Positions 36,684 through 58,664 of a DNA stretch of 64,000 bases are shown one piece after another. Below the pieces are notes generated by a model. That model had not been told where the DNA came from. It worked only from the letters and a program-made list of their open reading frames with translations, and ran no database searches. Numbering within the stretch: the stretch's first letter is position 1; the number at the start of each line of letters is the position of its first letter. The translations under genes and the position numbers were made by a program. Source of the DNA: Rhizodiscina lignyota (lineage: Eukaryota); assembly GCA_010015805.1 (NCBI GenBank), contig ML978131.1:496001-560000 (forward strand), written 5' to 3'.

Positions 36684-39600
36684 TCAGTAACCCCACTGTT
36701 GAAGCCAGATGTCCATCCATTCTGCAGTCACGCCCGGAAGTTCTGCCAGATACTTGCTCTGCTTTCGTGTCTGATCGGTTTCAAACAGCGGTTTCCGCGC
36801 TTTCTCACCACCTCCAGTAAGCCCGGTGTAGAAATCAAGGAGACTGAAAGCTGACAGACTCCTGCCGGCTCCTTTGCTATCATCATTCTCATACTTCTGC
36901 CGTAGCGCCTCGATCCACGTGTCGAACGGTACTGCTTGAACCTCTTTTTCTCCCAAGCTTTGACTCAAGCGAGCTTGGGCTACTGGAAGAAGCCTTTGCT
37001 CCCAAGGGACTGGGGAGGGATTGACGCAGTGGAATACCTTCCCGCCTTCTCCATCGTCGCTTGGCTGCAGTGCGAGTTCCACAATGATAGAGGAGAGAAT
37101 GTCAACAGGTATCCAGTCGACATACTCATTCGTGCCTAGTGTGCGAGGGAACAGAGCCAGTTGAGCCGATGCTTCGACAATCTAATTCAGGCCTCAACGT
37201 CCAGTTGCCAGAACAAACGAATGGGGTACTCACGCTTGGCAACCATTCTTTCCGATTCCACAATCCGGATTGACTTGTCTGCTTCACTGGTCCCGCAATC
37301 TGTCCCACCCGACATACGGTTGCGTTCACCCCAAGCTTATCACTAGACTCAAGGAGCAGTTTCTCGGCCACGAGTTTTGATTGCCCATATCCAGAGCTGG
37401 CGACATTATCCTCGAAGAAAGGAGCTTCAGGGATCGAGGACGCAATGGTAAGTTTATTTGCAATGCCGACCGAGGAAGTGAAGAAGACCTGGATGGTGTT
37501 CCCGAGACTGGATGCAGCAAGACAAAGGCTTATCAAGTTCTTGACCCCGCGAAGGTGTGTGCTGAATGATGTGAGAGCCAGGTTGAAGTCAACCTGCCAT
37601 TGTGTATCTGAATGACTGTAAGCAAAGTAATATCCAAACAAGGTGAAGTCGGACCACACGTACGGATTATTTGTGTTGCATTCTTCAAGAGATAAAGATA
37701 GTCCTTGTAATCTAGTCCTAGATTATCTTTCCAGAGCGTTGCTTGCCTGAAGAAAACTCTCCGATTATGAAAATCTGTGCGAAGGCCACGCTGGGCATTT
37801 GATGCTTTCTGTCTCGACTCGCTATCCGCAGACCTATTGAGACACCATATCTCTTCGACTGTGCCTGAGTTCATCAGATCGTTCAGAACATATGAACCGA
37901 GGGACCCAGTACTTCCGGTAAGAATGATGATATGGCCCTCCCTTCTCGACTGGATTTTGGCAACACCGTTTACTGTACGAGGAGGGTTGGGGAGTTCGGC
38001 GAATAGACTTTCAAATAGCTGCTGCACTGGAGAAGGTCCGGAGTGTCTATACGCGATGTGGCCATTTGAATGAGGTGCGGATACGAGTTGATACAACGTC
38101 CTTGACAAGAGGCTGATTGTGGGATTCTGGTAAATCAATGCTGTGCTCACAGCGGACCTTTCGCCATTGACGAGCACGAGTCCCTTCCGGAGATACTTCT
38201 GCAGCGTCAAGACTTGAAGCGAGTCAATCCCAGCAGCAGTGAAGAAGTCCGCATCTTCCGGAAGATTGACAATACCAGTGACCGACTCGAAAGCCTTCCG
38301 AACCCCATCACGGAAGGTCTGCTCGTCAGCCGAATTCAACTGAGGCACATCAGCATCAGTATCCGAAAAAGACGAGTCTGCCTGTGCATAGAGATCGTCG
38401 AGCTCTTTCTTGTACAATTCGAGAGTCGGTCCACGTCGTACAGTGCCTTTACTCGTTTTCGAAAACGGCTTGTCCGGGGTTGCGAATAAGATGTACTCCT
38501 TTAGGAGTTGGGCATGAGACGGAGCTGATATATTAGCGTCTTCAATCCACGGCCATAGTTCGTCGATGATGCGATGCCTTTCGATCGATATGTGGGGCGG
38601 GTTCCCTAAGAGCTCGACTAACAGCGAGGTCTGAAATCTACCCTGCCCAGAAACCACGACAGCTGAAACTGCGGGATGCGCAGCAATCGTCAGCTCCATA
38701 TTATGAGGTTGGACCTTCTCCCCATTGGAGAGTACGAGCACGTTATCGGCTCGGCCTTCGAACGTAAAGAGGTCTGGCTTCGTGGGATGTTTCGAAAACA
38801 AGTCCTTGAACGAATACTCTTGCTGGTCCGGGAAGGTCGAGAAGATCGGTTGCCACAACTCCAATTCAGGCCTTCGCACCGCGACGAGTTCGTAGAGGCC
38901 ACCGCCACGGTCTTGAAACTCCAACCCACCATATGGGTGGAAATGTATGTAGTTCCAGTCCTCTCGGTCAGTCTCGACACATGGTAACCATCCTGTTTCC
39001 GTTGTGCCGATGGATAGTACGAGCTTCGTATGTGGGATGATTCGATCGCCAGCTTCCTTGCTAACCGGCCCTAGTCATATTAGCACTGGAATAGAATTGC
39101 AGTAGGGGTTCCTCGTACCTCCGCCATACGCTATTGCATTTACATTTTCCAATATCTTCAGGAACTCCTCGTCTTGCGAAATATCCTGGACAATGGAAGG
39201 CGCTGTAAAGACAGCGTCGACCTTAGAGTGTATGATGACCTCCTTCATTATATCAAGAGTGACGGGACGCTCCGGACCCAGAACAACAGTCGTGCCGTAG
39301 AAAAGTGGCCACAACAAGCCATTAGATAGCCCGGCCGCGTGGAATAAGGGAAAAGTAAGATATGCTCGGCTGTCGAAATAGTCGTGAAGCAGTAGTGGTC
39401 GCCCATTGATTGCCGGTAATGCAGTATTCGCATCACTAGATGCGATGCTATCTAGATATCTGCGTACGGGCTTTGGGTTGCCTGTACTTCCACTTGTGTG
39501 GAGGATCCATGCTGGATCTCTTTTGCCTTCTTCCCAACTCTTGTCATATGGGTAATGACGAGATGGATTGTCGTTGAGAAAGTGCCCTATGTCAGGCAGG

Positions 39601-40140
39601 TCATACAATTGGAGGGGGACACGATCAAGGACTCTCTCGATGTTGGTGCCTCGAGAAGGCTTCAGCCAAATTTTGCAATCTGTTGCTTCGATCACCGCTA
39701 CATCGCCTTCCACGCTGTTACGTGGAGATATGTATAGAATCTACGCATTGGATCTTAGGCGATCGTAATCTGATATTCGGCTTTCGTTGATTTACCTTGT
39801 AGCCAGCCTTAATAGAAGCGATGACCAGAATGAAATATCGAAGATCACCTGTCCTGTGAGTGAGTAGAGACAAACGGATTGTCAGATCGCTAGTCAGCAT
39901 ACCTGGTCCCAAGTAACCGACTGTCGGAAACTCATCTGCTCTCCCCAAGGTCTCTTCGAACCACCACGCGGCACGATTTACCGCATCTGCAAATTGTCGA
40001 GTTGTGATTTTCGCAAACGGAACCGTAACATCATTCTTAACTGGAACTTCATACAGCACACGATGCGGCTGTTCGTCTGCCAATTCATCTAGAACGTGCG
40101 GAAGTAGCCTCCTACCGGTGTCACTTCGTTGCTTTCGCAT
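36684..40140 (-). CDS. NRPS-like A-T-R enzyme (fungal carboxylic acid reductase type)
   Basis: Adenylation motifs ILHTSGSTGNPKP and FEGRADNVLVLSNGEK. Carrier motif FFTAAGIDSL. Terminal reductase ILTGSTGSLG and GYGQSK. About 5 introns. The start may instead be the ATG at 40219 with a 49-nt intron. Confidence 0.92.
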
Positions 40141-41181
40141 GTCTGGAATATTGCGGTGGTGGTTGCTCGTATGGCACGTCTGGGCCCTCACAGAGGGCTC
40201 CAAGGTGAAGGGCGGCCATAGTCAAGTACATCCTTCGACCTGTCCGGCCTACGCTTCCGTCTCAACGGATTCGTCGGCGGATTGATGCAAGCGATACTGA
40301 CCAGAACGCGGTACGCGACGAGGAGGTCGCCAAAAAGATGCTGCAGGGGTTAGACGCTATCCCGGGAAACACGCTCGGTGGTGACACAAAAGTTGAGCCG
40401 TAGCTACAGTACTAGCTCCAATACACTGGCATTCAAGGATGTCTGCACTCGTCAACCAATAAAGATTGTGGCTGTCAATTTGTACACTTCCAACAAACAC
40501 TGTCTGAAGTATATCCAATTAAGCCTCCAGAGATGCTATCGCTGGCGCTGAAGAAGAGAGCTCATTTCTTTCGATGAATCTACTCTATCGTAAATGGCTC
40601 GGGGCTCGACTATTCTGCCACCGTCGAGCCACGCTTTACTACTATTGTCATCGCCGAAAAACAACGCCGCTAGCCTGTCCTAAGCTCCGCTCCATATCTA
40701 CGTCTTCCCTTCCTGTTCATCACGCAATTCTCCGTCAATCTCACGAATCTTCCTTCATTGCGTGAACCCTCCGATTACTACTCAGCATGCGGTGTTATGC
40801 TCCAACATAGCTTAGGAGCAGGGTCTCTATTCTCCTCCCGCCACGCGATGTCGCGTCTAATGTATTCCGGTCGCCTTACCTTGCTTTAGCGATGAAGTAT
40901 CTAACACATGCTCCCATTCTATGGCTCGGATATGTCAAAATAGGAACAGCGTATTCGTTGATTCTGCGAACGGTTGTCTCGAGCTCCATGCTTGGCTTAG
41001 AGCCGTGATAGTTCAATGACAGCCTGGGCGATTGTTGATTGATGCTTGAATCAGTCATATATCAGCTTCTCTGTTTTCTCATTGAGTACAGATCTTCTTT
41101 TATTTCTACTCGTCTTACTCTACAAAACATCCACCATCCGCGGGTTTACTCCATCTAATCAGTGTTTCTTTTATTTTCGCT

Positions 41182-43179
41182 ATGGGACTCTGGGTTTTGG
41201 AACCAGCGTCAGACGAGCCAGTGCCAGGCACCGTTCATCTTCAGCGCGAGCACGAGAAACGAATCATAAATACCGACCATCTCAAACATGGAAAAGGAAG
41301 ACATGCCAATCTGGTCCTCGTACCTCAGCCGTCCGACTCGCCCAATGATCCCCTAAGTAATATTCATTATCTTGACGCTGAGCCCATCAAATCAAGTATT
41401 CTAACGTATCCAACAGACTGGTCACAAGCGGCGAAATGGTATCAGGCAATCTTTCTCAGCATGGGCACTGGTTTGATGGCTGGAACACATAATTTCGTCA
41501 ATCCCGCCAACGCTCTCATGGCGAAGCTCTTCCACACGAGCATATCGACGATATCTCGCAGCGTTAGTATCGTCCTGCTCACTCTCGGCGCCAGCGCAGT
41601 AGCAACCTCTCCGGCCGCGCGTATATGGGGAAAACGCCCTGGTGAGCGAAAATCTCATCTCTGGATGATCGATCATCCAGTTCGCAGTCGCTAATTCTGA
41701 TGTAGTCTTCTTGGTCAGCAACCTAATCGCAATCCTTGGCTATGGGATTGTCATTTCAGACACCAAAAGCCTTGTCTCTCTTTATGTTGGAAGAGCTATA
41801 CACGGGCTCGGCATAGCCGCACTCGAGTACCTTGTCAGTTCAAGTGTTGGCGATCTTTTCTTCGTTCACGAACGAGGTATGCATTTAGCAATATGGCACT
41901 ATGCGTTGTCAGGTGGAAACTCGATTGGTCAAGTCATTGCTACCCAAATCGTAGCCGCACAGGGCTGGCCCTGGGCGTTCAAATACGCGTAAGTTCTCAT
42001 ACAATTTGTGGATTTCACATGCTAAATTGGAACTCCCAGCATGATCATTTTTGCCGCTTATACGGTCATCCTCTTTTTCACGTGCCCTGAAACGACTTAT
42101 AACCGTCCGGCACAGCTCAATACCGACATTAAAGAGCTTCTGGAAGACAGCAGTGTCGAAAGTATTCACGACGAGAAAGGCGATGAGATTGCAAGCCTTG
42201 ATACGGCACATGTAACGACAATAGCAGCAGATCTCAAATCTCAGCCGCATGCTGTCGAACTCGAGTCAAGGTCGCCCGTTTATGAGAGAAAGAAGACGTA
42301 CTGGCAATCCCTGAGAGTATACAACGGTCGTTTTAGCGACGAGTCCCTTCTCCGTGCATTCATCACTCCGTGGAGCGCTTACCTTTTACCGGCAGGTGAG
42401 AAATCTCGCACATTAACATTAGTAGCATACTGACACGGTGTTTTAGTATCATGGACAGCTTATTCGTACGGCTGTTCTGTAGCATTTGCCGCATCGTTCT
42501 CAGTCGCCTTGGCGCAAGTGTTTGCAAAGCCTCCGTATTATTTCACTACCTCGCAAGTCGGGCTGACGGTTCTGTCTGCCTTCGTGGGTGCAACGTTAGG
42601 CAACATCTTCCCTGGTCCGTTTTCTGACTGGCTGGTCAAATACATGTCTCGCAAGAATAACGGCATCTACGAGCCAGAATTTCGCATCCCTTTAACAGTG
42701 CCATCGTTCGTCCTTGGCTTGATGGGGTTCTGGGGATTTGGCTGGTCACTTGACGCCAAGGCACATTGGATAGCCCCAGTATTCTTCTTCGGTCTAGCCA
42801 CGTTCGCTGGGTCGATTCAGTCACTGATATCGAACGCTTACTTGCTCGACTGCCACCGCGCTCATGCTCAGGATGGGTATGCTGCTGTAACCATCTGTCG
42901 TGGGCTCTTTTCTTTCTTGATTACAATGGTCATTAATGACTGGATCAGTAAGGAGGGTGTCAAGGACGTTTACTTCTGGATTGGGATGCTGCACGGAATC
43001 AGCTGTCTTTGGGGGATGGTATTGTATGTTTATGGCAAAAGGGTAAGTGTGCTCGAGTGTTCAGACACTTCATCTCACACTACTTCGGAATCATGCTAAC
43101 AGACTGTTATCAGATCCGCTTAGCGGTGTCGAAGGGATGGATTCAGAGTCGGTTAGGATCAGCGAGAGAATTGAAATAG
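41182..43179 (+). CDS. MFS transporter (HOL1/DHA1-like)
   Basis: LVPQPSDSPNDPL|DWS, WGKRP, GDLFFVHERG, FTCPETTY and NNGIYEPEFR motifs. About 5 introns. Confidence 0.9.
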
Positions 43180-43871
43180 CAGCCATGACCATCCGGATTA
43201 TGCAGATTGGCAGGATACAGGGTGTGGCGCTAGCGAATATTTAGTTGAATTTAGAAATTAATATTTTCGCTCCTGGATATAATGATCAGAGCTAACCACT
43301 TACGGCATTAGTATTTTGGTACTATATAGTAGAATACTTAGTAAGCAGGCGCTACGCGCGGGACCTTTGATTTCTACGCGTCTGTGATCAAACTCTCTAT
43401 CCACAACCAAAATACTACTCCTTACTATCTACAGACACACTGTGCCTAGTGAAGCGTGCAGTAACGGCAGCGGTGGAGCTGCTCCATTTCATTGTATAGC
43501 GCTGGTCACGATAAGCGCACGCCCGAGCTGTACGCGTTAGATACGCTTAATCAATCGGCCACTCATAGTTTGGGGCAAGAAAGTGAAGTATGAATCTCCA
43601 TCTAACGAATTGGAATTTTCACCATGTCCTTTTCCTTGACTGCCGTATCTAGGCTATGATTCAGTGCAAGGATTCTCGCTGCATTGCTTCCATGTGGAGT
43701 ATTAGCGGCGATGGTGCAATACCTGCCTGTTCTGTGGTCATGACCACGGCCTTGGGTTATCTCTCTGAACCACTCTTTCCGCTTTCCATTCAAGCCCCAA
43801 TCGAAGGGACAGCTGCTAGTCTTCTCCGAAATACATTGTCATAAGGAGAATGTGCTTGAAAAGTGAAAAAC

Positions 43872-46716
43872 ATGAGTTTGCTTGATATCAGTCTCGTGGA
43901 TCCATCTTCTTTTGGCAAGAAACGGAAGCGAACAATCGCAGCTTGCGTGAGATGCCATGAAAGAAAGGTGAAGTGCGATGCCAGTATGTCAACAATCTCC
44001 CTTCGGCGATGTCTGCTTACGGAAATGCAGGAAGCTTATCGAAAGGGGAGTCCTGCAATGTACGTGGGTAGAGGCCTTAGTTTTATGATATCTCTGCGGA
44101 ATACTGAATCACTCTGATCAGAATTGTTTAACGGCTGGTGAGATCTGCCGGTAGGCGACAGTTTCGATGGTTACCTTGAAATGGCCTAATCTTCGTAGGA
44201 GTCATCTTGACGGACGGCTTCGAACGAACGGCCGAAGCAATGGAAGACCGAGGTACGAACACTTTATTAATAGCTTATGCTGCTTGTAATCTAATATGAA
44301 GCAGCATTTCACAAGCCGAGGATGCTGCCAGCAATACTGAGTCTGGTTCTGCATCGTCGTCCTCTGCCGTAAATTATCTAGCTTCAGGCGAAAGGGCAAC
44401 ACCTGTCTCTAACGACCAAACATCGAACCTCATTCATGCTCCAGATATTCCGGCGGGAACTACGAACGGTTACCCTCAACTCTCACAGACTGGCCAGAAT
44501 GGGCTGCTTTCCGCGGAAGTGTCAACTGACATTGCAGTTCCAAGTACGGCTGCACCAGTCCATCGCTTTCAATCGTACATTGAGGACAGTCTTGGGTCTT
44601 ACGCGCCTCGATTCCGTGCCGAAAATTCGTTATTAGAACCTCACAATCACTTCGATGTCGCCACTGGTCCACAAGGCCTCCCCTTTGAAGATTCTCATTA
44701 TCCAATAGAGATTGATATGGGTTCCCGCTCTACAATAGACTTGGAACAACAAGTGACGAATCTGGACTCGGCCGACATGGATTATCTCCGCGCAAAAGGT
44801 GCGCACACTGTCTTCATTCGTTTGATCTTTGACCCTAATGCACACAGGCGCATTCGAACTCCCTCCGTACAATTTGCAGGAAGATCTAGTACAGGCGTAT
44901 TTCGCAGAAGTCAATCCCGTGGCACCTATCATCAATCGGACAAAGTTTCTGAACGAATTCCACAATCACTGTGTTAGCAGTAGGCTCCTGCTTTTTGCTG
45001 TATTCACAGCTGGGTGCAAAGCGTGCCGAAACCCTCTGCTACTAGACCATAAGGGCACTAATCATCAGAGTGCTCGACGCTTCTACAAAGTTACCAAAGC
45101 ACTACTGGATACTGGATACGAACAGGATAAGGTCGCCCGAATCCAAGCACTTTTACTCATCACGTGGTGGTGGGATAAGAAGGTAAGTTTTGCGTTAGAG
45201 CAAAAGTGAAATTGGAACTATGTTAACCTGCTCCACCTAAATTCAGGACGATGGTGGTCGAAACATGAGGGCATGTGCTGTTGATGCAATCAACACCGCA
45301 CAAAGTATCGGAATGCACAGATGGGATCAGTATCCGCGATCAGATCCTGTCCTCCGAGGTCTATGGAAGAGAGTTTGGTGGACTTGTTTTATGCGCGACG
45401 TCGGTGTCGCGACTTCACATGGCCTTCCGTGCATTATCAGCCTATCCGAATTTGATGTACACTTTCTAGTAGCTGAAGATTTCTCCGAGGAGCCCCACGT
45501 GCCACCGGATCAGCAACAGTATCCGTATTCAAACGCAGAGATCTCCTTCTTCATAGAGCAAGCAAAGATCATGGAAATGCTACATCTCATCCAAAGCGAA
45601 CATATCACAAGATTCAGACTCCACAGCAACACAATCGGACCAATTGCGGACCGGCAAAGCGGTGGCACAGAAATGGAATATCCTCCAGGAGTCAAGAATA
45701 TTCGACTCGACTACGAGGACGACTATCACGATCAAAGCCTCAAACTTCTCAAGCAATGGTTTGAGACGGTTCCGGAAGCGGTCCGATATGATGTAGATGA
45801 CATCCAAGGCCACCGTTTCTGGCCCGCCTTCCTTCACATCTTGTACTTGTAAGTAATACCTGGGCCTTTTGAATCAATATCTGATTAGTTCAGCACCGCC
45901 ATTTGCATCCGATTCCGTGAAAGAGCTGTATCTCGGCCTACAGATGCTCGAGCTAGGGCGGAGAGGCAATACTGTCAGTCCCGAGGCATTGCCGCGGCGA
46001 GTATGATATTCAAGATCCTCCGCAACGTTAGGGCTCATGGACATATTTACCGCTGTACAGGACTGCTGTAAGACAAGCCATAAACTCTAACAGGCTTAGA
46101 AGCTAATTGTTGCCGTGTCATTGCAGTACTCAATCGGTCTTCAATTGCTTAATCTTCTTCCTCATTGAAGGCCAGTCACTCAATGAAGAAGTGAGAAAGG
46201 ATGCACGCAACAAATACTCGTTGTGTTTAAACGTTCTCTATGAGTTCAGCCAGCTTTGGGTGAGCGCGTCTCTTATTCATAGACTGTTCGAATCCCTCCA
46301 GGGGAGTATGCAGTTTCGAAAAGAACGCCCTCATTCTATATACTTCGACCAATGGCTCCCTCCCGTTCCTGGTCTTCATGTTTCGAGCGACATCACGAAC
46401 CAAAAGATGAGAGAGTGAGTATCTATTAATGTTGAAATTAAGCGAAATTGCTGATGTAGATGTAGGCTTCTAGCAACAGAATTCTATTATGCACCAAGTA
46501 GTACAGACGTTACCGGTTTTGAGCAGTCATCCAACAGCATTAGCACAGGCTTTACTCCCAATTTCTCATTCCCTATGGATGACACTTCACCGCACTATTC
46601 TCAAGGGTTTCCAGAAAACCTGGACGTGGAGCAATGGTACGATTTACGTGGAATCAGAGGTGTGTACAGGGCTGACACTTGATAGGTGTAATTTCTTTGA
46701 CCTGGGGGAGCTATAG
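43872..46716 (+). CDS. Zn(II)2Cys6 transcription factor with fungal-specific TF domain (probable cluster regulator)
   Basis: The spliced Zn cluster CVRCHERKVKCDARSLSKGESCNNCLTAGEIC spans three exons (introns 43984-44030 and 44060-44121). Middle domain AQSIGMHR...WKRVWWTCFMRD. Confidence 0.88.
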
Positions 46717-46945
46717 ACGCTCTAGACCTCCAGGTTCGGCGTCTTGGGTTGCCGGGCAGACCCGAATGACAATCTGCGGCTCTTTTCTGCCGATATGATG
46801 CCCTTTCTGGCTTCACCGACATCGCGCTAACCACTATTCCATGCCTCGGCATATAAACAATCTCACGTCTTTGATGCTTGGCCTTGATGGCCACAGAAAC
46901 TGATTGAAACACTTCGCCCAGATTCTCCGATTTCTCAAATTGATC

Positions 46946-48091
46946 ATGGAAGCATCGCATCTCTTCTCTCCCCTTGGAGTGGGAAAATGTACACTTCAGC
47001 ACCGCGTTGTCATGGCCCCAATGACCCGGCGACGGGCCTTGGATGGGTTTGTCCCGAACGATCTGATGCGACAATACTATGAGCAAAGAGCCTCTACACC
47101 GGGAACGCTGCTCATCACCGAGGCCACGGCTGTGTCCCCTCGCTCCGCTTCACTTCCACATACACCTGGATTATGGACCGCAGAACAGATCGAAGGATGG
47201 AAGCAGGTCACATCTGCTGTTCATGCACGCGGTTCATTTATCTACGTACAAGTATGGATGTGTGGGCGGGCTGCGAGGCCAGGAGCTGTAAAGCGTGGTG
47301 CGGAGGTCATATCTCCGAGCGATGTATCGATTGGAGAAGGACATCCACAGCCACGGCAACTTTCCGAGGATGAGATCCAGCAGTGCATTGAAGAGTTCCG
47401 GCAAGGAGCAATCAATGCGATAGAAGCAGGCTTCGACGGGGTCGAACTTCACGGAGCAAATGGTTATATCATTGATCAGTTTACGCAGGACGTATCAAAC
47501 CACCGAGACGATAAATGGGGCGGCAGTACTGAGAATAGAGCAAGGTTTGGATTCGAAGTTGCAAAGGCCGTTGCCAACGCTATTGGCTCCGATCGCGTCG
47601 CCTACCGCGTCAGTCCCTGGAGCCGACATCACGGCATGAGGATGGAAGACCCAATACCGCAATTTACCTATCTGGTCAAGGAACTGCGGAAGCTTCAGTT
47701 GTCGTATCTGCATATCGTCGAAGCTCGCGTACAAGGCAATGCAGATACCACAGGAACAGAGTCAATTGATTTTCTGATCGATGCTTGGGATAATATCAGC
47801 CCGGTCGTTGTTGCCGGAGGTTACAACTCCAACACAGCAAGAGAAGTCGTAGACGAAAACCATGCCAAAGGAAGAGACGTGTTGGTGGCATTTGGCCGAC
47901 CTTTTGTTTCAAATCCGGATCTGCCGCTTAGGATCAAGGACTATCTGCCGATTGCAAAGCACAACCGCGAATTGTTCTACGAGGTGCTGAAGCCTGAAGG
48001 CTATATCGACTACTCGTTTTATTCAGTACAGGCCCCCCATCCAGCGTTGGATAGAGATATTCGTAGAGAGGGTATCGCAGTCGCGGCGTAG
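46946..48091 (+). CDS. Old yellow enzyme (NADH:flavin oxidoreductase / ene-reductase)
   Basis: HRVVMAPMTR, YYEQRAS, LITEAT and AGFDGVELHGANGYIIDQF (catalytic HxxNxY). Intronless. Confidence 0.95.
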   Translation: MEASHLFSPLGVGKCTLQHRVVMAPMTRRRALDGFVPNDLMRQYYEQRASTPGTLLITEATAVSPRSASLPHTPGLWTAEQIEGWKQVTSAVHARGSFIYVQVWMCGRAARPGAVKRGAEVISPSDVSIGEGHPQPRQLSEDEIQQCIEEFRQGAINAIEAGFDGVELHGANGYIIDQFTQDVSNHRDDKWGGSTENRARFGFEVAKAVANAIGSDRVAYRVSPWSRHHGMRMEDPIPQFTYLVKELRKLQLSYLHIVEARVQGNADTTGTESIDFLIDAWDNISPVVVAGGYNSNTAREVVDENHAKGRDVLVAFGRPFVSNPDLPLRIKDYLPIAKHNRELFYEVLKPEGYIDYSFYSVQAPHPALDRDIRREGIAVAA

Positions 48092-48486
48092 GGCGCATAT
48101 CCTGTCCAATCAACAACAAGCTCTTCTTCGATTGCGTGATTCTCTTTGAATTTCAAATCGACTGCCTAGATTGCCGAATATCCACTCTGTGAATGTTTAG
48201 CCTTCCATACTTTGGAGAATTGTAGTTCGGCATCAAGCATGCGAAACTCTGGAACAACCACACGCCATCCAAGCTATTCCCTTTTTGACATCACCGAGAA
48301 TCACTGTCATTGGAAGACGAGACCCAGATATGCCTTCTGCATGTCCTAGTCATGCAGCTTGCCCTGCATTGGTTGCGGGGCGGGTTCCAACCCCTTGGTT
48401 ACTGAGTCTGGGATTCGGACACAAAAGTCATACAGCTTTGCATCGAGATTAATCAATCTGTCAATTCACTGCAATTTATTTTCCAA

Positions 48487-49380
48487 ATGTCAGAGAATAC
48501 TGGTGCCTCGAGATCGATAACAAGATCAGATCTTGTTAGGGCATCTTCGTCTCCTGACATCCGCCTCTTCTATACTATCGATTCTCCCTTACACAAAGCC
48601 GAAAAGACTCCCATAATACTGTTATCGAACTCCTTGGCCGCATCGACTCCACTCTGGAACGAATTCGTGGAAGCATTTGCCAATGAGTACACAATCGTCC
48701 GGTATGATGCACGATTCCACGGACAGTCTCCTCTGTCATCAACAAAGGATTACGACTATGAGCGCGGCCATACAATCGATGATTTGGCCGAAGATGTCAT
48801 CAAGCTCCTCGATGGCTTAAACATTCAAAGAGTCGACGCATTCATAGGCCTTAGCATAGGCGCTGCAGTAGGCGTTGCTCTCGCAGCAAAATATCCTGAG
48901 CGCTTCGATAGTTTCGTGATTGTAGGCACAAGGGCAAACGCCAAAGATGGAGATAACGCAGGGTACGATGCGAGGATAAAGTACGGCCGAGAGAATAGCA
49001 GCAGAGCACTTGGACAGCAGAGTGTCCAACGATGGTTTGGGGAACAGTGGATTCAGCATCATCCGGATAAAGCGTTATTCCTCTTAGATGTTGTCGGTGG
49101 CCAGTCTATCGAGGGCTTTGTTGCCAGCGTCCAAGCGCTGAGGAAGTTGGATCTATGGCCAGCTGCGGAAGAGATTAGCAAGAGGAGTGAGGGCAATAAA
49201 TTGTTGTTTGTCGTTGGAGCGGAGGACGCAGATCCAGTAGTGGAAGATACCAAGGCATTGGCTGAACGGACCGGCTCTGAGGCAGTGGTTGTCGAAGATG
49301 CAGGCCACATGGTCAATGTGCAAGCGCCGGAGCAATTCCATGATATTGTGAGGCGTAGAATAGAGCAAACCATCTCCTAA
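48487..49380 (+). CDS. Alpha/beta hydrolase, 3-oxoadipate enol-lactonase (PcaD)-like
   Basis: LSNSLAA, YDARFHGQS, nucleophile GLSIG, RWF, VGAED (acid) and AGHMVN (His). Intronless. Confidence 0.82.
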   Translation: MSENTGASRSITRSDLVRASSSPDIRLFYTIDSPLHKAEKTPIILLSNSLAASTPLWNEFVEAFANEYTIVRYDARFHGQSPLSSTKDYDYERGHTIDDLAEDVIKLLDGLNIQRVDAFIGLSIGAAVGVALAAKYPERFDSFVIVGTRANAKDGDNAGYDARIKYGRENSSRALGQQSVQRWFGEQWIQHHPDKALFLLDVVGGQSIEGFVASVQALRKLDLWPAAEEISKRSEGNKLLFVVGAEDADPVVEDTKALAERTGSEAVVVEDAGHMVNVQAPEQFHDIVRRRIEQTIS

Positions 49381-49956
49381 GCTGTATGCGTGACGCACTG
49401 ATCTTGATCTCTCAAAGTCATTTTAACGCATTGTGGAGGAGAGAACATGTAGCTGAGATGATGGTGAACGCGGCGCGCGAGTCATGTCAACCACATGGCG
49501 TGCTTCCACCTTCTTCTCACGACAACCTCATCCTTCTCTACAGCCTCGTATGCTGATCGCGTGGATCTCAACTTCCGAACTTATCTGCATGCCGTACGCG
49601 TCTCTCTAGGATATCGACATCGCTCGGAGATGCTCTTTTAGACCGTGGCCGCCTCTAACTCAATCGTTCGGAGCTCTTGGCTATCGCCGTTCCGCTCGCC
49701 AGGCCGGACCAAAGCCTCCCGGAATTTCCATAGCTCTAGCAATGGATAGCTCGGCAGATGTACTAGAATGGGGTCTGCAGGAAGCTCTTGCGAGATGCTG
49801 CGTAGTAGGTTTACTGATTGAGAAACAATCCGTTCTCAGTTTCTCCTCTCATATAAGCTCTCTCGAGATTGTCCCGTCAAGTTCTTTTTCTATGCTTCAA
49901 CTGACCTTCCACATAAAATACTATTTTCCTGCTCACAGCTGCAGCGGGAAAGCAAG

Positions 49957-51908
49957 ATGAACGGGACAAGTAGTGAAACTGCGAATGGCCATACCAATGG
50001 CGGCACCAACGGCAACGCTCCGCAAACCAGCGAACTCCTTCCTCAGAACACGAGCGACATTGTTGCCGGCAACTACGTCCACGAGCCTAAACCGATCCGG
50101 GTCATCTTCATTGGCGCTGGTATATCTGGTATCGCGTTTGCTTATAAGGCACGTCAACTCGAGAATGTCGAATACGTGATCTACGAGAAGAATCCAGACA
50201 TTGGCGGCACTTGGTACGAATCGAGATACCCTGGCGTCTCTTGCGATGTCCCTGCACACTGCTACACCTATACTTGGGCATCAAATCCAGACTGGTCGCG
50301 CGTATATGCCAGTGGAGAAGAGATACGGGAGTTCTATAAGAAGCTGGCAGGGGAATATGGCGTTTATGAGACGGCCAAGTTCAAGCACAAGGTGATTGGA
50401 GCGCAGTGGGACGAGGGCACTGATGAGTGGAAAGTCGAAGTGGAGGACCTAGAGACTGGCAAGAAATTTGTGGATGTTGCAAAGGTGTTGATTAATGGCG
50501 GGGGGCCGCTCAAGTGAGTGCGGGACTGCTTCGTATCACGATACGAAATGTGTGCTCACTAATCGTAGCAACTGGAAATGGCCGGACATCCAAGGCCTGC
50601 ATGATTTTCAGGGCAAGTTGCTACACATGGCGCAATGGGACGATTCTGTCGACTTGAAAGACAAAAGAGTCGCAGTCATTGGATCTGGGGCTTCCGGAAT
50701 CCAGATTGTTCCTGCCATTCAACCAGGTAGGTTGTTTCATGTAGTTGTGTATGTCCTGTCAACACCAGCTGATGTAGTCAATTTGGACTGTAGTTGTGAG
50801 CAAACTGATATCCTTCAATCGTTCTCCCACTTGGGTCGCGCCTGAGTTCGCGGGCCAATTCGCAGCTAACGGACGAAACACGGTCTACTCCAAAGAGCAG
50901 CGACAGAGATTTCGAAGCGACCCTACATACTTCAGGAATTATCGCAGAGAGATCGAGCACGGCATGAGCGCGAGATTTCCGGCCTTTTACAAATATTCCA
51001 AGGCTCAGAAAATTGGCCGGCAAATGGTTGCAGAGACTATGCGAAAGAGACTGAAGGAAGATCCTGACCTCGTCGAGAAGTTGGTTCCCAAGTTCGAACT
51101 CGGCTGTAGACGGTAAGCATGGAACTTGCTGCACGACCTGAAAGGCGATACTAATAGTCTCTACAGTGTAACGCCAGGTCATGGATATTTAGAGGCCCTC
51201 ACTGAGCCGAATGCAAAGGTAGTAGCCAGTGGCATACAAGAGGTCGTATCCAATGGCATTATTAGTCGTGATGGAGAGCTCCACGAAGTCGATGTGATCA
51301 TAACAGCAACAGGATACGAGACTTCGTACGTTCCGCGATTCCCTATCATTGGGCTGCAACAGCAGAACCTGCAGGACAAATGGAGGAAAGAAGGTGCTGC
51401 TGCATATCTCTCTTGCGCCGCGCCAGGCTTTCCAAACTATTTCCTCACGCTAGGCCCGAACGCTCCGATCAGTAACGGCTCGCTTGTTGCAGCGATGGAA
51501 CGCCAAGTTGATTTTGCGCTCTCTTTTGTAAAGAAGATACAGACTGAAGACATCACATCGGCAGTCGTGAGTCCAGAAGCAGCGGCCGAATTTGATGAAT
51601 GGAAGAACGATGTCATGAAGGGCATGACCTGGAGTGGTAGTTGTACTAGTTGGTACAAGAACGGAACACAAGATGGCAAGGTGATCGGTAAGTCTCCATT
51701 TCAAAAGACTACGTGGGACAACGCTTTCTGACGATTACGATCAGGGCCATGGCCGGGCTCAGTCAACCACTTCATAGAGATCATGAAGAGGACGCGTTTC
51801 GAGGACTTCAACTACAAATACAAGACTAGGAACCGGTTCAGGTACTTCGGTGATGGCAGGTCGCCAGTGGAGGCAAAAGGAGAGCCTTTGGGATGGTATA
51901 TGGAGTAA
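49957..51908 (+). CDS. Baeyer-Villiger-type flavin monooxygenase (class B)
   Basis: GAGISG, GGTWYESRYPGVSCDVP, BVMO fingerprint FQGKLLHMAQW, second Rossmann GSGASG, ATGY and CTSWYK. Four introns. Confidence 0.93.
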
Positions 51909-51999
51909 TCTACGTACCTTTTTTAACTGCGATACAAAATTTTGAAGTCTGAAATCGCTTGTCGCGTATCTTAATCTAATTACTCTATATGCCCGAGGT

Positions 52000-53405
52000 T
52001 TAGAAATTCTCCGCGTCGTGGCCAAACAACCATTCTCTTCTCGCTTTGTAGCCCCAAAATATCGGATTCTTTTCGTCATCTTTGGTGATCCACGCATCTC
52101 TGTCTTGCTGTTCTTTCCCGTCCGACAGATGATAAGCGTCCTGTAACTTCCTTCCAGCCTTCTGGACTACAGACGCGCGCGGTTGCCGGATCTTCTGATA
52201 TCTCTGTAGAGCTGCTGGGAGATTCTGTTTGGTTGCCGTTTGAAATATCTTTCGCAGTACAGCCGCATCTTCACAGGCCATTGCGGCTCCGGAAGCCATG
52301 TACGGCAGCATGGGATGCACTGCATCGCCGAGCAGAGCAGCTTTGCCAGACGGATGCACCCAGTGGTCGACGAGATCAAGATCGAATAATCTCCATTTGA
52401 GGAAGTCCTGCATGAAATCTCAGTATATGCAAGGAATTAGTATGAGAAAGGCCGAAATACCTTGCCCGCGAGGCTCACGATTTTCCTCACTCTTGGCTCC
52501 CAACCTGCGAACCTCCGAACCAATTCTTCATTGTCCGAAATGACGAGCTTTGTCTCATCTCCGACGAACTTCTGGTCCCGCATTGAGCGCGCAGAGCAAC
52601 AACATATAACGTTGTAGATCTCTCCGCCGCGTATTGGGTACCCAATGACATGCGCATCCGGTCCGCACCAGGAAGTTACCCATGGTTGGGAAAGGAGGTC
52701 TCTCAATTCCGGATCTGCAAGGACGTCCTGCCCTGGGATAAGAATACGGTAAGATATGTCTCCAGTATCGATTGGAGGGAGCTCGTGGCCTTGAAAAAGT
52801 GTACGAGCTTTGCTCTGCACGCCTGCTTCGCCGTCAGAAATGGGGCTGTATGTCTCTTCTGTACAAGGCGCCTCACCATCTGCGACGATAATGACGTCCC
52901 CTTCAACTCTCTCCCCCGTTTGCAAAGTCACTGCTGGCGCATCGAAGTCATACTCGTCCACTCTGCTACTCTTCCGTATTTCAACGCCGAGATCAAATGC
53001 CCTCTGCAACAACACAGCATGGTAATCGGCCCGATGCACCATTAGATAACAGCCACCAAAGTCCCATTCCGGAATACCATGCGGCATGTTCGCCAGTGTC
53101 TCGCCGCTGTCAAATCTTAAGAAGCGATTGCCATTTGAATATGTCTTCTTCATGTACGTCAAATCAATGCCCCATCGATACAGGATTTTGAAGCTGTTTG
53201 GCGGAATACGTAGTCCCGCACCAACTTCACCAAAGGTTGGAGACTGTTCAAGAATGAGGACCTTGTGGCCGTCGAGACGAAGTCCGATCGCGACTAGCAG
53301 ACCACCGATTCCCGCGCCTACGACGAGAACATTGAGTTTATCGCCAGGACTCTTCTCATCATGGCCATTCACGTAATCACCATTGGTTTCAAGCTTTTGG
53401 ACCAT
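52000..53405 (-). CDS. FAD-dependent monooxygenase, salicylate hydroxylase-like (class A)
   Basis: GAGIGG, GEVGAGL, VHRAD, IVADG and LLGDAVHPMLPYMASGAAMACEDA. Two introns. First ATG is at 53405. Confidence 0.9.
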
Positions 53406-54319
53406 CGCTGCACCACTGAATTCTGACAATACGAAAGAAATATTTGAGATGGGATTACTGGACGATGAAAGAATAGGACGAAGCTACAAGGTGTATGTAG
53501 AGTAATCTGAACATAACCGCGAACATATTGATACGCACTAAATCTTACACATCTCAATGAGACGCGCGCTCACATGACAACGGAGGAATAAAATCGAATT
53601 GCGCCATTCCTACGGTATTCTCGGACCCGTCATGAGAAGTAAAGCTGGCGATTCCGTAAATGGAATCGCCGGTCGAGAGAGCAGTGAGCTCCTTTGAAGC
53701 GAAGCGATCCCGCAGTAGGCTAAAGCACTGAAGGTGGGTCTGCGCCGAACCGTGATGAACAGCTCGAACAAGAAAGATCGATTTGATCCATCTGTCGACA
53801 CGAGGCCGGACCGCTATCCCAGAGCTGTCGCGACTAGCCCATTATCATACCATTTTGCAGTGGAGTGGCGAGACAAGGCTCCTTTCAAGTTTGGACCTGT
53901 TTCGCATTTCTGAATTCGAGGTCAATGTACCCCATTGATCTCCGCGTATGAGACGCTTGACTATATTAATAATATATAGATGGTCATAAGCGTTGAACAC
54001 TCTCTGAAGTCAGCCATCTCCGATTGCCTAAACAGGTTTAGCAGCTCCCGAAACGTGATCTCGATGCGTCTTGCTCAAAAGACCCACATGCGTTAAATCC
54101 ATTCTGAGAGTGTTCTCTCTAAGTCTGATCAAAGTTAAAGATGCATATGTAAAGCACGCGGAATACGTACAGGTATGTATCTTATTTGGTTAGTGGAAGG
54201 TTCTCGTGATCACGCGTCGTTACGCGCTTCGTAAATCAGAATAGGGAAAGCGCGCGTTCTCCGCAGAGCTTAGAGCTTTCTTTCTTCATCCAACAACCAT
54301 CAATCACCGCCCCGCAATA

Positions 54320-54565
54320 ATGGCTCGCAGGCTCCACTTCTTCGACCTCCCTCGGGAGATGCGCGATATGGTCTACACCTACATAGTGACTCCCTCGCAG
54401 TTATCACTTCTTACGATGGCTAGATTCGGCACTTGCCTCTTGAGTTCTAATGCAAGGAGCAGGATATTCGACATATCAGGAGAATACTGGAGCGTGAGAG
54501 ACAAGATGTCAGACACCTTTTATTATGGAGGTCGGACGTCTCACGTGATATGGAATACCTCTTAG
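54320..54565 (+). pseudogene. Truncated F-box-like gene remnant
   Basis: Good ATG context, then FFDLPREMRDMVYTY (fungal F-box-like LPxExRxxIY). The ORF stops after 81 aa with no clear spliced continuation. Confidence 0.45.
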
Positions 54566-54726
54566 AGAGTGTCATGACACCGGTTGTGACAGCCGCGGGG
54601 TTCAAGCCTAAAGTCCTGAAAGGCATCCACGTTTATGACGATACTGGCGCAATGGTCTTTGGGGGAGCAGATGAGGTATATGTAGAATAACGGGATATAT
54701 GGATTCACGGGCATGGTAAAACGAAT

Positions 54727-54888
54727 CTCTGTAGGGGTGGGTGGTGTACCCCCTTTAGCGCTAGGGCACACCCGGCCTCGGTACAGAAGTACCCTCTAGC
54801 TTAGGTACTGAAGTACCCAGATCACGGGGCACCCTGCACCCAACCCCATCCAGAGCTCGGTGTCCTAACCCCCCGGAGCTTAGGTACT
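54727..54888. repeat. Structured repeat element: imperfect inverted arms enclosing tandem hairpins
   Basis: Arms at 54727-54752 and 54826-54855 are imperfectly complementary. GGTAC(A/T)GAAGTACCC occurs at 54780 and 54804, and AGCTTAGGTACT at 54798 and 54877. Confidence 0.6.
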
Positions 54889-55122
54889 AAAACTGGGAAT
54901 GCCAGAGTGCTAATGGGGATAAACACGCGAACCACGGGAGAATGGTGCTAGCGCCTGAACAGACTCTGCTCCATATCGAACAGGCTTGAAGCCATTGATG
55001 TAATTGTGCAGGGAAATGGCATGCGACAGTTGCGATACTTAAAGAATTTCATTTCCTGTATAACCGTGACTTGATGTCAATCAAGGTGGTGGCAGCATTA
55101 CGAGCGAGATTCGAGATGTAAG

Positions 55123-55188: not shown

Positions 55189-56208
55189 GAAACATACAGC
55201 TCAACTTACGCAAAGGCTAGTAGTTTAGGAGCGTACACGCCTACTATCTGCCTCACCAAAGTATTCGCCGCAAGATACTGGGCCTGCTGCACATTTGATT
55301 GGCCAAACGCATGGTATGGTCGTGCTGAGTTCAGGCCAACTTCGAGACGCGCTGAAGTGTAAGCTCACAGCCAAGCTCTTCTGAAGGAATCACTTCCAGG
55401 TTACCGCCGCGCGTCGCTCTCATATGCTTTCGAAGCATCTTGTATCTCGTTTCACAGTTGGCATCGCGAGTTTGTAAGCGTGCCAAAGGGCGGAAAGTGC
55501 CCACGTTCATTGGTCACCTGGGTATACAGAGTAAAACAACGAGACGGAGCTCTGTTGTGAATGATAAGAGATGCATCTAAAGGAGCAAAAGCCCAAATTA
55601 ATGATTCCATAGCACCTTCTGCATCTTAACTGACGAGCCAAGAAGAAATATATTGGTGGACGAAGCTAATCCCCTTCAGGCTTCGTCACATCGATGATTG
55701 ACGATCAGGCATCGGACTCCGCGCTGTCTCAGATTCCGCGAGCGGAACATCCAACAACCTGCTCACCAAGCCTTCCTCTCACCAATCACTCATCAGTCAA
55801 TGCCATCAGCATTTCCGGGGCACGTTGCCCACGCTATTTCGCGTCTGCCAGCTGCCGACCTCACTTGACGATGGCCAAAATGAGGCATCTGTGCAATGCA
55901 AATGCGTCCGACATCTGCCGATAGCTGTCCCACACCCCTCAACGGGCAAGACCTGGGGATCTACCCCGCCGATGCCCTGAAGCAGCTGCGTTTCCGGGCT
56001 AGCTAATCTGGCTGGGTGGCTTAAGAAGGCGCGCGTGTTGCGTTCGCGAGTACGTACTGCCTCTATGCGAGATTGATGCGGGTAAGTGATCTCGGGAAGT
56101 CGCGCTGCTGTCACTTTTGTTATTCAAATAAGCCACTTGGCTGCACCTCTGAAGATGCATCTCTCTCATTCAATTCAATCTTCCATACGCGCTCAGTAAT
56201 CACTCACA

Positions 56209-57724
56209 ATGGCGTCGGACGCAGTCAATGGCGGTGCTCATTTCACCGTACCTCTTATCATCAATGGCAAAGAAGTCATCACCTCCACCACCTTCCCCGT
56301 AATCAGCCCCTCGAGCAAGAAAGAAATATGGAGCAGTTCCTCCGCCGGCAAAGAAGAAGCAATTGCAGCTATCGAAGCTGCTGAAGCGGCCTTTCCATCA
56401 TGGAGCCGTACGAAACCTTCAGAGCGCCGCGACATCTTCCTACGCGCCGCCAACATACTTGAGAAGAGGGCCGACGAGGCGAAGCAGATCATGCAAGATG
56501 AGACGGGAGCGGTTGCCAACTTCACAGGATTCAACCTCATGACAACGGTGGAACAACTGCGCGATATTGCGGGGAGGATTGTTGTCAGCTTGAGCGGAAC
56601 TATCCCAGTTTCTCAGACTGAAGGGACAAGCGCTCTTATTTTGAAGGAGCCATTTGGAGTGATTTTTAGCATTGCGCCATGGTAAGATAAGGGATATTTT
56701 GACGGCAGAGCAATTGCTGATTCTCGCGTTTAGGAATGCTCCGTTCATCCTTGGCCAGAGAGCCATCTCCTACGCGATCGCCGTTGGAAACACAGCTGTC
56801 CTCAAGGGCAGTGAGATGTCCCCTCGATGCTTCCAATTGATCTCCCAATGCTTCCAGGAGGCCGGCCTCCCAGGAGGTGTGCTCAACGTCATATATACAC
56901 GGCCACAGGACGCAGCAGAAGTTACCAAGGCATGCATCGAGGCTCCACAGGTGAAGAAAATCACCTTCACTGGCAGCACTGCGGTTGGTAGCGTCATTGC
57001 GGAGCTCGGAGGCAAGAGTCTCAAGCCTGTGGTCATGGAGCTGGGTGGCAAGGCTAGTGCCATTGTGTGCGACGATGCAGAGCTTGACCATGCCGCATTC
57101 CAGTGCGCGCTGGGTGCCTTCATCCACAGCGGCCAGGTATGCATGTCTACGGAGCGAATTCTCGTCCACGAATCTATCCTTGAATCATTTTCCAAGGCGC
57201 TCACCAAGGCAATCAATATTTTGGGTCAAGGTGCCTCTGATAGCCCGATCCTAATCAGCCCAGTCGGTGTCAAGAAGAACCACGAGCTCATCAATGGTGC
57301 TGTCAACGGTGGTGCGAAGATTCTCCATGGAGATATCAACATCAAAGAGACCACTGATACTCGCATGCGACCAATCGTCGTTAGTGGCGTGACACCGGAG
57401 ATGGATCTCTACCACAAGGAGTCATTCGGACCGTCTGTCAGTCTCATTGCAATTTCGAGTGATGACGAGGCTGTCAAGATCGCCAATGATACCGACTACG
57501 GCCTATCCGGTGCAGTGTTTACAAAGGATCTCGTCAGAGGTCTGAGGATTGCAAAGAGCATTGAGACCGGAGCAGTTCATATCAACGGCATGAGCGTACA
57601 CGATGAGCCGAATTTGCCCCACGGCGGTGCGAAGAAGAGCGGCTTCGGCCGATTCAATGGGCAGCAGGGTATGGACGAGTTCTTGCGCACAAAGGTGGTC
57701 ACGTTCCTAGGAGTGGATCTTTGA
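56209..57724 (+). CDS. Aldehyde dehydrogenase, vanillin/salicylaldehyde dehydrogenase-like
   Basis: IAPW|NAP, FTGST, MELGGK, catalytic GQVCMSTER and ESFGP. Intron 56682-56733. Confidence 0.93.
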
Positions 57725-57844
57725 GGGAGCGGAGTCTTGGCGCTGAGGAGTTGGAGTTTGGTGGCGCTGGAAAGCCGGAGCTCAGCATGGGATGTACGAA
57801 AAGCGCACTGGAAGCGATTTTCAGGGTATCCCAATGTAAAAGTT

Positions 57845-58664
57845 TCATACTTGAGTTTCTAGATCGCTCAAATCCAGGTCTTCTCCTGCTATCCCTCTCA
57901 CGATCTTCGCAACCACATCAGGATGGTTTACGAAGGGACTATGCGCTGCATCGACCTTGTAAATCTTTTCGTGATGAGAAGCGGTCTGTTGCAGCGTCTT
58001 AACAGCGAATCCTTGATCCTTCACAGGCCAAATGTACCAGGTCGGATAGTCCTCGTATGCTGCATATGTAACCTTCGACTGCATGGCCCTGAACGAGTGC
58101 GGTCTGGCTCTTTCAACAAACGACCGTGCAATCTCAGGGTCGATGTCCGGATAGAAGACCTTCTCCATGTTCGGCACGATCCAGCTCAGTCGTCCCTTTT
58201 CGCATCATCAGATGAGTAATTGACAGAACTGAAAGGGCGAGACTTACCTCGCGCCCATACCACGGAGGCTCTGCCGCACCCGGCATGTTCGACATTACGC
58301 TCCCGCCAACAGGCAGAACGAAAGCTGCCATATACACAATTCCCACTACGCACCCCTCCCGTCCCATGGCCTCGCGTTCCTTGCGCGTGAAGCCCTTCGA
58401 AGCCTCCCCAGCGATAAGTCCCCCGAATGAGTGCGCAAGAAGCAAGACATCCCGACTTCGTTCAATCTCGTTGAGAATCTCATACCGCACCAACGCGACG
58501 TCTGCGTCGAAGGATTGCGTCGGCACCTCGCTGGCTGAAGGCATTGTCTCTCCCTTGACGGTATATCCTGCCGCTTGGAGAAGTCCGATCACAGGGTTGT
58601 AGTGCTCGACGGCATGCCATGCGCCAGGGACTATGAGAATTATCGGCTTTGTCTTCGGCGCCAT
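57845..58664 (-). CDS. Alpha/beta hydrolase (Abhydrolase_6, methylesterase-like)
   Basis: IVPGAWH, nucleophile AHSFGG, acid KDQ and AHSPF (His). One intron at ~58190-58247. Confidence 0.85.

Follow-up and report, generated by a model that had tools for sequence, protein, structure and literature searches.

Carboxylic acid reductases (CARs) make aldehydes (PMC5826065). Described fungal CARs such as NcCAR and the clade VI enzymes AtCAR, StbB, CicB and PnlA share the order adenylation (A) domain, thiolation (T) domain and reductase (R) domain and a set of essential residues (PMC5826065, PMC9605436). Many fungal A-T-R reductases have neither a polyketide synthase (PKS) partner nor a known purpose, and the unclustered ones were excluded from the count in PMC8403587, their role being unclear. 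Clustered Baeyer-Villiger monooxygenases (BVMOs) that act in sequence with an esterase are known from aflatoxin biosynthesis, with MoxY/StcW and EstA (PMC7150809), and the ergot module for lysergic acid alpha-hydroxyethylamide (LAH) combines the adenylating reductase Lps3 (A-T-C-R, where C is a condensation domain), the BVMO EasO and the alpha/beta hydrolase EasP (PMC9118626, PMC10034635). Here we describe a locus of the fungus Rhizodiscina lignyota in which the genes of an A-T-R reductase, a BVMO and a serine hydrolase (HYD1) lie in one block of seven. The window, the whole stretch of 64,000 nucleotides that was analysed, covers positions 496,001 to 560,000 of contig ML978131.1 (GCA_010015805.1; G000:C11:496001-560000) in a genome of 33.4 Mb.

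Gene content of the cluster

From sequence comparison we conclude that the seven-gene block at 36,684-53,405 is a conserved cluster, in which the BVMO and the hydrolase are central and the A-T-R reductase appears as a co-inherited, optional module. A first-pass annotation of this DNA had described seven contiguous genes followed by two more, and all nine are located where it had placed them, with intact frames and GT-AG introns (spliced by hand). The genes of the block are as follows.

36684..40140, minus strand: A-T-R carboxylic acid reductase (CAR), 1063 aa in 6 exons; variable cluster member
41182..43179, plus strand: major facilitator superfamily (MFS) transporter, about 566 aa (a 36-bp intron is uncertain, giving 554 or 566 aa); core
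43872..46682, plus strand: Zn2Cys6 transcription factor (TF) with PF04082, 780 aa in 10 exons; core
46946..48091, plus strand: Old Yellow Enzyme (OYE) with PF00724, 381 aa in a single exon; linkage elsewhere only suggested
48487..49380, plus strand: PcaD-like serine hydrolase (HYD1), 297 aa in a single exon; core
49957..51908, plus strand: type I BVMO of the StcW/MoxY-like group, 572 aa in 5 exons; core
52000..53405, minus strand: group A flavin monooxygenase (FMO), 432 aa in 3 exons; core via one other taxon

The intergenic gaps within the block are 91-1041 bp long. Enzyme and regulator assignments are backed by a Pfam scan of 49 long or plausible open reading frame (ORF) pieces, which were chosen from the window's 151 stop-to-stop ORFs with a minimum length of 100 aa. 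The annotation had reported neither a PKS nor a condensing nonribosomal peptide synthetase in the window, and indeed the 49 pieces gave no hit to a PKS or a condensation domain; in the 10 kb adjoining the window the ORFs of 150 aa or longer were inspected, and no PKS was seen among them. In the seven-gene block the scan detected no prenyltransferase, methyltransferase or ring-cleavage dioxygenase. A C-terminal SKL-type peroxisomal signal is absent from all nine proteins.

Conservation in other fungi

HYD1 and the BVMO are found no more than two genes apart in 15 other taxa of four ascomycete classes, namely 14 named species and the taxon of the metagenome loci L001/L003/L004 described below. 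Gene order in other genomes was read from the adjacency of locus tags or accessions. The hydrolase/BVMO pairs are Paraphoma chrysanthemicola KAH7084375/74, Xylogone sp. KAH8810612/11, Fusarium decemcellulare 3704/3703, Neonectria magnoliae 6133/6134, N. punicea 5067/5068, Exophiala spinifera 8212/8213, Rhinocladiella similis 3557/3556, Fonsecaea multimorphosa 12279/12277, Aspergillus calidoustus 2801/2802, F. vanettenii 86541/86543, F. solani (KAH7254957/59 and others), Plectosphaerella plurivora KAH6670249/51, Sporothrix brasiliensis KIH88552/53 and S. schenckii ERT02255/56. The HYD1 clade is carried by at least 28 named species besides R. lignyota, and in 14 of these 28 the BVMO is at most two tags or accessions away. 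Eleven HYD1-bearing species have no linked BVMO among the matches listed, the HYD1 and BVMO accessions of Pleurostoma are 74 apart on contigs of equal length, so that linkage there is no more than possible, and the listed copies of Scytalidium and S. bragantina are on different contigs, which speaks against linkage there. Orthologues of the cluster genes therefore co-occur in other genomes, and the lack of such co-occurrence, which the annotation had named as a ground for giving up the cluster, is not what we found.

In seven of 17 taxa an A-T-R orthologue has HYD1 or the BVMO no more than five genes away, the 17 being all those for which linkage of any cluster part was shown. The seven are Paraphoma (KAH7084377), Xylogone (KAH8810616), F. 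decemcellulare (3706), N. magnoliae (6130), N. punicea (5065), Coniochaeta ligniaria (OIW22562, with the BVMO OIW22564) and Durotheca rogersii (KAI5857326/28). They span three classes, and the number of genes between the A-T-R reductase and the hydrolase or BVMO varies from 1 to 3. Among the matches listed there is no A-T-R clade member from E. spinifera, Rhinocladiella, Fonsecaea, A. calidoustus, the F. solani complex or Plectosphaerella.

A metagenome scan returned 51 loci, of which four (L001-L004) belong to the fungal clade and probably stem from one taxon. In L003/L004 the gene order is cytochrome P450, short-chain dehydrogenase/reductase (SDR), esterase, FMO, TF, HYD1, SDR, BVMO and MFS. 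Neither the A-T-R reductase nor the OYE has a match at E <1e-4 in the fetched DNA of L001-L004, which for L003 is 10 kb on each side of HYD1. The TF orthologue is present in L002-L004. An FMO orthologue (65-74%) adjoins the TF in L003/L004, and the core status of the FMO is based on these two loci only. The MFS orthologue is found next to the BVMO in L003/L004 (segments of 48-69%) and also in Fusarium solani/F. vanettenii (52-53%). The annotation had seen the cluster as built around the A-T-R reductase; since HYD1 and the BVMO form the most constant link, and the A-T-R reductase shows linkage in 7 of the 17 taxa and is missing from L003/L004, this view is not upheld.

The A-T-R homologue search scored 7999 candidates and gave 213 hits, of which the best 120 were listed; among these the closest relatives are 51-57% identical over the full length. 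In a tree of 38 sequences chosen from the 120, the linked A-T-R reductases fall into one clade of 16 with 100% support, and the catalytic motifs are intact throughout this clade. Its other eight members from outside the window (Scytalidium, Sarocladium, Niveomyces and five Sporothrix) are unlinked or had no linkage shown. We compared the A-T-R tree with that of the BVMO over ten shared taxa and two outgroup sequences. Both trees branch off Xylogone first and place Sporothrix with the Nectriaceae. The groupings expected from the species tree are Sporothrix with Coniochaeta, and the Sordariomycetes with Xylogone. The A-T-R and BVMO trees reject the first with p-AU (approximately unbiased test) values of 0.0077 and 8e-39 and the second with 0.0015 and 0.0005, values which are optimistic, because the tested groupings were named after earlier trees had been seen. 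The branchings that both trees share in discordance with the species indicate that the two genes travelled together. The HYD1 tree repeats the Sporothrix-Nectriaceae group as well as the A-T-R-free group.

In a quick BVMO tree and in the hydrolase tree, the BVMO and hydrolase of Aspergillus calidoustus (P0140) and A. pseudodeflectus (P0021) nest among Fusarium/Plectosphaerella, with the BVMO at 80-83% to Fusarium, which suggests horizontal transfer of an A-T-R-free cluster. In F. decemcellulare BVMOs of both cluster types are found within seven tags, FDECE_3703-3709 (P0137, P0028, P0174, P0135), on one 51-kb contig.

Predicted functions of the cluster proteins

The spliced model of the A-T-R reductase is identical to protein P0172, which is named Rhizodiscina lignyota at NCBI. 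Its domains PF00501, PF23562, PF00550 and PF07993 give A, T and R in one chain without a C domain, and the R domain was aligned to PDB 8aep with an E-value of 8e-70. H231, E329, E422, S588, the motif TGSTGSLG and Y847/K851 are present. The residues found to be essential or important in NcCAR are H237, E337, E433, S595, Y844, K848 and T/SGxxGxxG (PMC5826065), and all of them have counterparts here, those of the A and T domains by motif and spacing. In domain order and residues the protein fits a fungal CAR, and ATP/NADPH-dependent acid-to-aldehyde activity is predicted. The residue following the A4 histidine is Ala232, and the 12 displayed members of the clade have Ala, Thr or Gly there. Amino-acid-activating A domains of the LnaA/LnbA type have an Asp after the A4 motif, which binds the alpha-amino group. 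Ala, Thr or Gly instead of Asp argues against a piperazine-type dimer, and Ala232 speaks against an amino-acid-reducing A-T-R enzyme of the LnaA/LnbA type. The context of the NR-PKS-linked (non-reducing PKS) CARs of clade VI was rejected, with no NR-PKS in the 49 ORF pieces or the adjoining 10 kb. It was too strong to state, as the annotation did, that A-T-R enzymes usually lie beside an NR-PKS, because this is stated of clade VI, which makes up 9 of 84 CARs (PMC9605436), and because the R. lignyota genome contains 10 further A-T-R-like loci, 11 with the cluster copy.

Type I BVMOs are recognised by two GxGxxG motifs, FxGxxxHxxxW, GGxW..YPG...D and a catalytic Arg. The cluster BVMO carries this motif set, with both fingerprints as well as D97 and R345 present. 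Its orthologue P0292 aligns to OTEMO, PAMO and CHMO with an E-value of about 1e-54, and its Atlas neighbours include a stcW-named cluster. The putative active-site loops are nearly identical in BVMOs with and without an A-T-R reductase in the cluster, which suggests one substrate class. The BVMOs of Pleurostoma richardsiae (P0292) and Coniochaeta ligniaria (P0131), two genera of different orders, are about 90% identical.

The catalytic triad of HYD1, S123, D247 and H274, is unchanged in all 54 relatives that were aligned. Its predicted structure has a pLDDT of 94.9 with the enol-lactonase 2xua as best fold match, and both in sequence and in fold HYD1 is nearest to the enol-lactonase PcaD. Against the PcaD model TIGR02427, which is a bacterial model with a cut-off of 255.85, HYD1 scores 152.3 bits. 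No beta-ketoadipate context (dioxygenase, cycloisomerase) was found in the block or the scanned ORFs of L003. HYD1 as the housekeeping enol-lactonase was rejected; it is distinct, at 27% identity, from a separate ChdA-like protein of 560 aa on contig C14. This protein (L052:1990-3669; G000:C14, about 355.5-357.2 kb) is intronless and two-domain with a C-terminal PcaD-like domain, and it probably serves this genome as 3-carboxymuconolactone hydrolase/decarboxylase of the ChdA type, matching the size and layout described for ChdA (PMC10406623). The HYD1 search covered 4638 candidates with 172 hits; the top 64 of the best 120 listed form a compact fungal clade at 38-61% identity and are followed by bacterial-type sequences at about 30%. 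The clade is not nested among 20 bacterial-type sequences, so a bacterial origin is unsupported, and it pairs weakly (support 78) with the ChdA-like protein of the same genome.

The FMO had been annotated as salicylate-hydroxylase-like and turned out to be closer to the decarboxylative 4-hydroxybenzoate/vanillate 1-hydroxylases. Its best PDB matches are 8gsm (E 7e-32) and 8x38 (6e-26), and the salicylate hydroxylases 5evy (2e-9) and 6bz5 rank far below these. Two pieces of the FMO score 65.5 and 59.9 bits with TIGR03219 (salicylate 1-hydroxylase), where the cut-off is 446. The W-x-G-P-x-x-H active-site segment of the 4-hydroxybenzoate/vanillate 1-hydroxylases is kept, at modest similarity, and the closest paralogues in the own genome are at 34-42%.

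Classical OYEs possess a His/Asn/Tyr catalytic set and an FMN-binding Thr. The cluster OYE agrees with this in T27, H169, N172 and Y174 and in its PF00724 domain. The best single-domain representative is P0312 from Coniochaeta sp. PMI_546 (66%), the next one is at 53%. A member of the best OYE cluster and a HYD1 orthologue were both observed on Logan contigs of 3312 bases, which hints at linkage.

The MFS pieces have no Pfam match, and the call rests on 52-53% identity to a UniRef-named MFS protein. An orthologue of the TF is fused to the A-T-R reductase in the Neonectria punicea model P0176 (46% over 727 aa, 66% on one exon). P0176 with 1639 aa and the F. solani model P0305, which combines BVMO and MFS in 1184 aa, are probably annotation merges of adjacent genes. 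The TF presumably resembles the FarA/CTF1 family. The FarA site is CCTCGG, of which the window has 30 copies against an expectation of 31.8; the region upstream of the OYE contains one, and the five other promoter regions contain none.

Proposed pathway and alternatives

The cluster is most likely catabolic. Its enzymes only reduce, oxygenate and hydrolyse, and the lack of any scaffold-building enzyme speaks for catabolism or detoxification; the view of the annotation that the cluster is apparently undescribed and has no scaffold-building enzyme was borne out by the Pfam scan and the literature search. The retention of a BVMO next to a serine hydrolase suggests that an ester or lactone is formed and then hydrolysed, as with MoxY/EstA (PMC7150809). 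BVMOs can convert aldehydes to formate esters, which yield alcohols (10.1101/2024.04.05.588253), and aldehyde-to-formate chemistry of BVMOs is also named in the title of Ferroni 2017.

The reading that we favour, tentatively and with somewhat less than even confidence, is a catabolic route from an acid via aldehyde and formate ester to an alcohol or phenol that is one carbon shorter. The MFS transporter would import the compound and the TF would induce the genes. The A-T-R enzyme would reduce a plant-derived acid to the aldehyde, the BVMO would turn the aldehyde into a formate ester, and HYD1 would hydrolyse this ester to formate and the shortened alcohol or phenol. If the acid is of the cinnamate type, the OYE could saturate the enal, and the FMO may hydroxylate the phenolic product, with the ring-cleavage pathway encoded elsewhere. 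The A-T-R reductase would be one of two interchangeable entry modules to the same carbonyl, which in the A-T-R-free L003/L004 could be reached by oxidation with a P450 and two SDRs. Our best guess for the substrate is a wood-derived phenylpropanoid or benzoic acid. Many of the cluster carriers are presumably wood- or root-associated fungi. A narrower version, in which a stand-alone CAR, a BVMO and a PcaD-derived formyl esterase would take off the carboxyl carbon of plant acids as formate and the OYE would open the way from hydroxycinnamates to tyrosol-type alcohols, with exchange across classes and swappable entry modules, we consider doubtful.

Several observations weigh against the aldehyde-formate route. 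BVMOs also oxidise aldehydes back to acids (10.1101/2024.04.05.588253), so that BVMO and CAR together would cycle futilely. The route consumes ATP and 2-3 NADPH, whereas such an FMO could decarboxylate 4-hydroxybenzoate in one step. Hydroxyversicolorone is a ketone. It is the substrate of MoxY (PMC7150809). The enol-lactonase fold of HYD1 fits a lactone substrate equally well. The argument for interchangeable entry modules rests on one taxon, and SDRs may occur in other, A-T-R-bearing clusters. Furthermore, the A-T-R reductase of Sporothrix sits on another contig, and linkage of the OYE in other fungi is only suggested. When six promoter regions of the cluster, six regions of L003 and 12.5 kb of background were compared, no convincing shared promoter motif emerged given the words tried (exhaustive 6-8-mers and spaced CGG).

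The nearest alternative, possible and in our estimate on the unlikely side, is also a catabolic cluster, in which the BVMO acts on a ketone or on a cyclic enone or dienone and the A-T-R reductase acts elsewhere. In one variant an aryl alkyl ketone would be converted to an aryl ester and a hydroquinone; in another the FMO and OYE would make a cyclic enone or dienone, from which the BVMO would form an enol-lactone to be opened by HYD1. The A-T-R enzyme would then reduce the acid that is freed by hydrolysis or serve a side branch of detoxification. The resemblance of HYD1 to PcaD in sequence and fold, the proximity of the BVMO to the stcW-named cluster and the lack of a ring-cleavage dioxygenase in the block suit such a pathway. 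So do the SDR between HYD1 and BVMO and the P450 of L003/L004, which a route from alkylphenol to ketone needs; the 4-ethylphenol route of Aspergillus fumigatus is reportedly of this type. However, a ketone substrate explains less simply why the A-T-R reductase is linked and shares its history with the BVMO, and the OYE is missing from L001-L004.

Biosynthesis without a PKS, in which an acid from primary metabolism would be tailored into a secreted product as in the vibralactone or LAH pathways, is improbable. These two pathways do use comparable enzyme sets (PMC10257657, PMC9118626), and a pathway-specific TF with an MFS transporter suits biosynthesis as well as catabolism, but no gene for scaffold building, prenylation, methylation or precursor supply is found in the block or in L003/L004. 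Moreover, the A-T-R reductase, which such a pathway would have at its core, is absent or not linked in 10 of the 17 taxa, and Ala, Thr or Gly, not Asp, follows its A4 histidine. Very unlikely, finally, is a functional unit of HYD1, BVMO, FMO, TF and MFS only, with the A-T-R and OYE genes as hitchhikers that were passed on along with the rest: A-T-R-like genes are frequent (11 loci in the genome), this one is dispensable or unlinked in the same 10 taxa and physical linkage alone yields a common history, yet the linkage persists in three classes with a changing number of intervening genes (1 to 3), and the catalytic motifs of the A-T-R reductases are all intact across the clade.

Should the aldehyde-formate route prove true, it would be a new way for fungi to deal with plant acids and a ready-made cascade for shortening the chain from acid to alcohol, and the CAR/BVMO/formyl esterase version, a catabolic logic that the literature search did not turn up, would give a clade of orphan fungal CARs its first physiological pathway. 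If a ketone or lactone is the substrate, the cluster remains an undescribed catabolic cluster. The surprise is tempered by the fact that regulator-bearing catabolic clusters are frequent in ascomycetes and that BVMO-esterase pairs are already known.

Cluster edge and neighbouring genes

To the right of the block the following features were found.

54245..54929, plus strand: decayed ORF (about 54245-54690) and dispersed repeat of about 180 bp (about 54747-54929); likely cluster edge
56209..57724, plus strand: aldehyde dehydrogenase (ALDH) of the vanillin/salicylaldehyde-dehydrogenase type, 487 aa; probably outside the cluster
57845..58664, minus strand: alpha/beta hydrolase 2, 255 aa, from the Pfam scan; probably outside the cluster

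The annotation had described a 2.8-kb gap with the ALDH and hydrolase 2 behind it. The spacing is correct (2803 bp between the block and the ALDH), but the gap is not empty, as it contains the decayed ORF and the repeat. The gap has 22 matches in the genome, of which 18 are to the repeat elsewhere (72-94% identity), three to the ORF part, on contig C10, and one is the window itself. The repeat (54747-54929) is non-coding with short internal direct repeats and is possibly the relic of a small mobile element. The decayed ORF (54245-54690) lies in two frames, its first piece has no Pfam match, and related pieces are found at G000:C10:490-492 kb. Together the two likely mark the edge of the cluster.

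The ALDH matches PDB 6qhn and 9ihb at E 1e-86, and it is the sole close copy among the five genome matches at E <1e-50, the next paralogue being at 43%. In the fetched DNA of L001-L004 neither the ALDH nor hydrolase 2 has a match (E <1e-4). Because of this, and because the repeat and the gene relic separate them from the block, their membership in the cluster, as the annotation had it, is unsupported and both genes are probably outside.

On the left side the cluster is bordered by genes for Hsp90, a tetratricopeptide repeat (TPR) protein and a hydroxyisourate hydrolase (HIUase), as found in the Pfam scan. Past these housekeeping genes, 7 kb to the left of the cluster, a separate FAD-dependent monooxygenase (PF01494; 28404-29693) is located beside weakly septin-like ORFs. 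Between 3711 and 14932 there is a loose group of an MFS gene, a methyltransferase, a cytochrome b561-like piece and a Zn2Cys6 regulator.

Comparison with known systems

No description of the gene set was found in the literature, including a search with six locus tags, in a coverage that left most subscription papers outside. Like the fungal phenylpropanoid-degrading clusters (10.1101/184242), the cluster is patchily distributed among plant-associated ascomycetes and comes with a regulator and a transporter. The words 'Baeyer' and 'lactonase' do not occur in the main text of that paper, whose cluster models in the supplements could match, and 'Baeyer' and 'tyrosol' do not occur in the available text of a 2025 review of A. 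niger aromatic pathways (PMC12388069).

The vibralactone pathway of Boreostereum vibrans likewise uses an aryl acid, 4-hydroxybenzoate, independently of a PKS, and its enzymes include a flavin monooxygenase and a cyclase besides a CAR (PMC10257657). It differs in that it needs a prenyltransferase, is probably unclustered and belongs to a basidiomycete, and its five named enzymes, in the available text, include no type I BVMO. The aflatoxin pair of MoxY/StcW and EstA resembles the cluster in its BVMO and esterase, but acts on a PKS product (PMC7150809), whereas the present cluster lacks a PKS and has a PcaD-like hydrolase.

The ergot LAH module is similar in its kinds of genes. It resembles the proposed route in the net loss of the carboxyl carbon and in a formate ester among its proposed intermediates, a step which is itself hypothetical (PMC9118626, PMC10034635). 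In contrast to the cluster, the LAH module is biosynthetic, needs a condensing nonribosomal peptide synthetase, and its EasO is proposed to act on an enzyme-bound thioester; the A-T-R reductase of R. lignyota has no C domain and is optional. From the published fungal CARs this A-T-R reductase is set apart by the absence of a nearby NR-PKS and by its own clade, which gene order and common history tie to a BVMO and a serine hydrolase, so that the purpose of one orphan reductase clade becomes a question of three enzymes.

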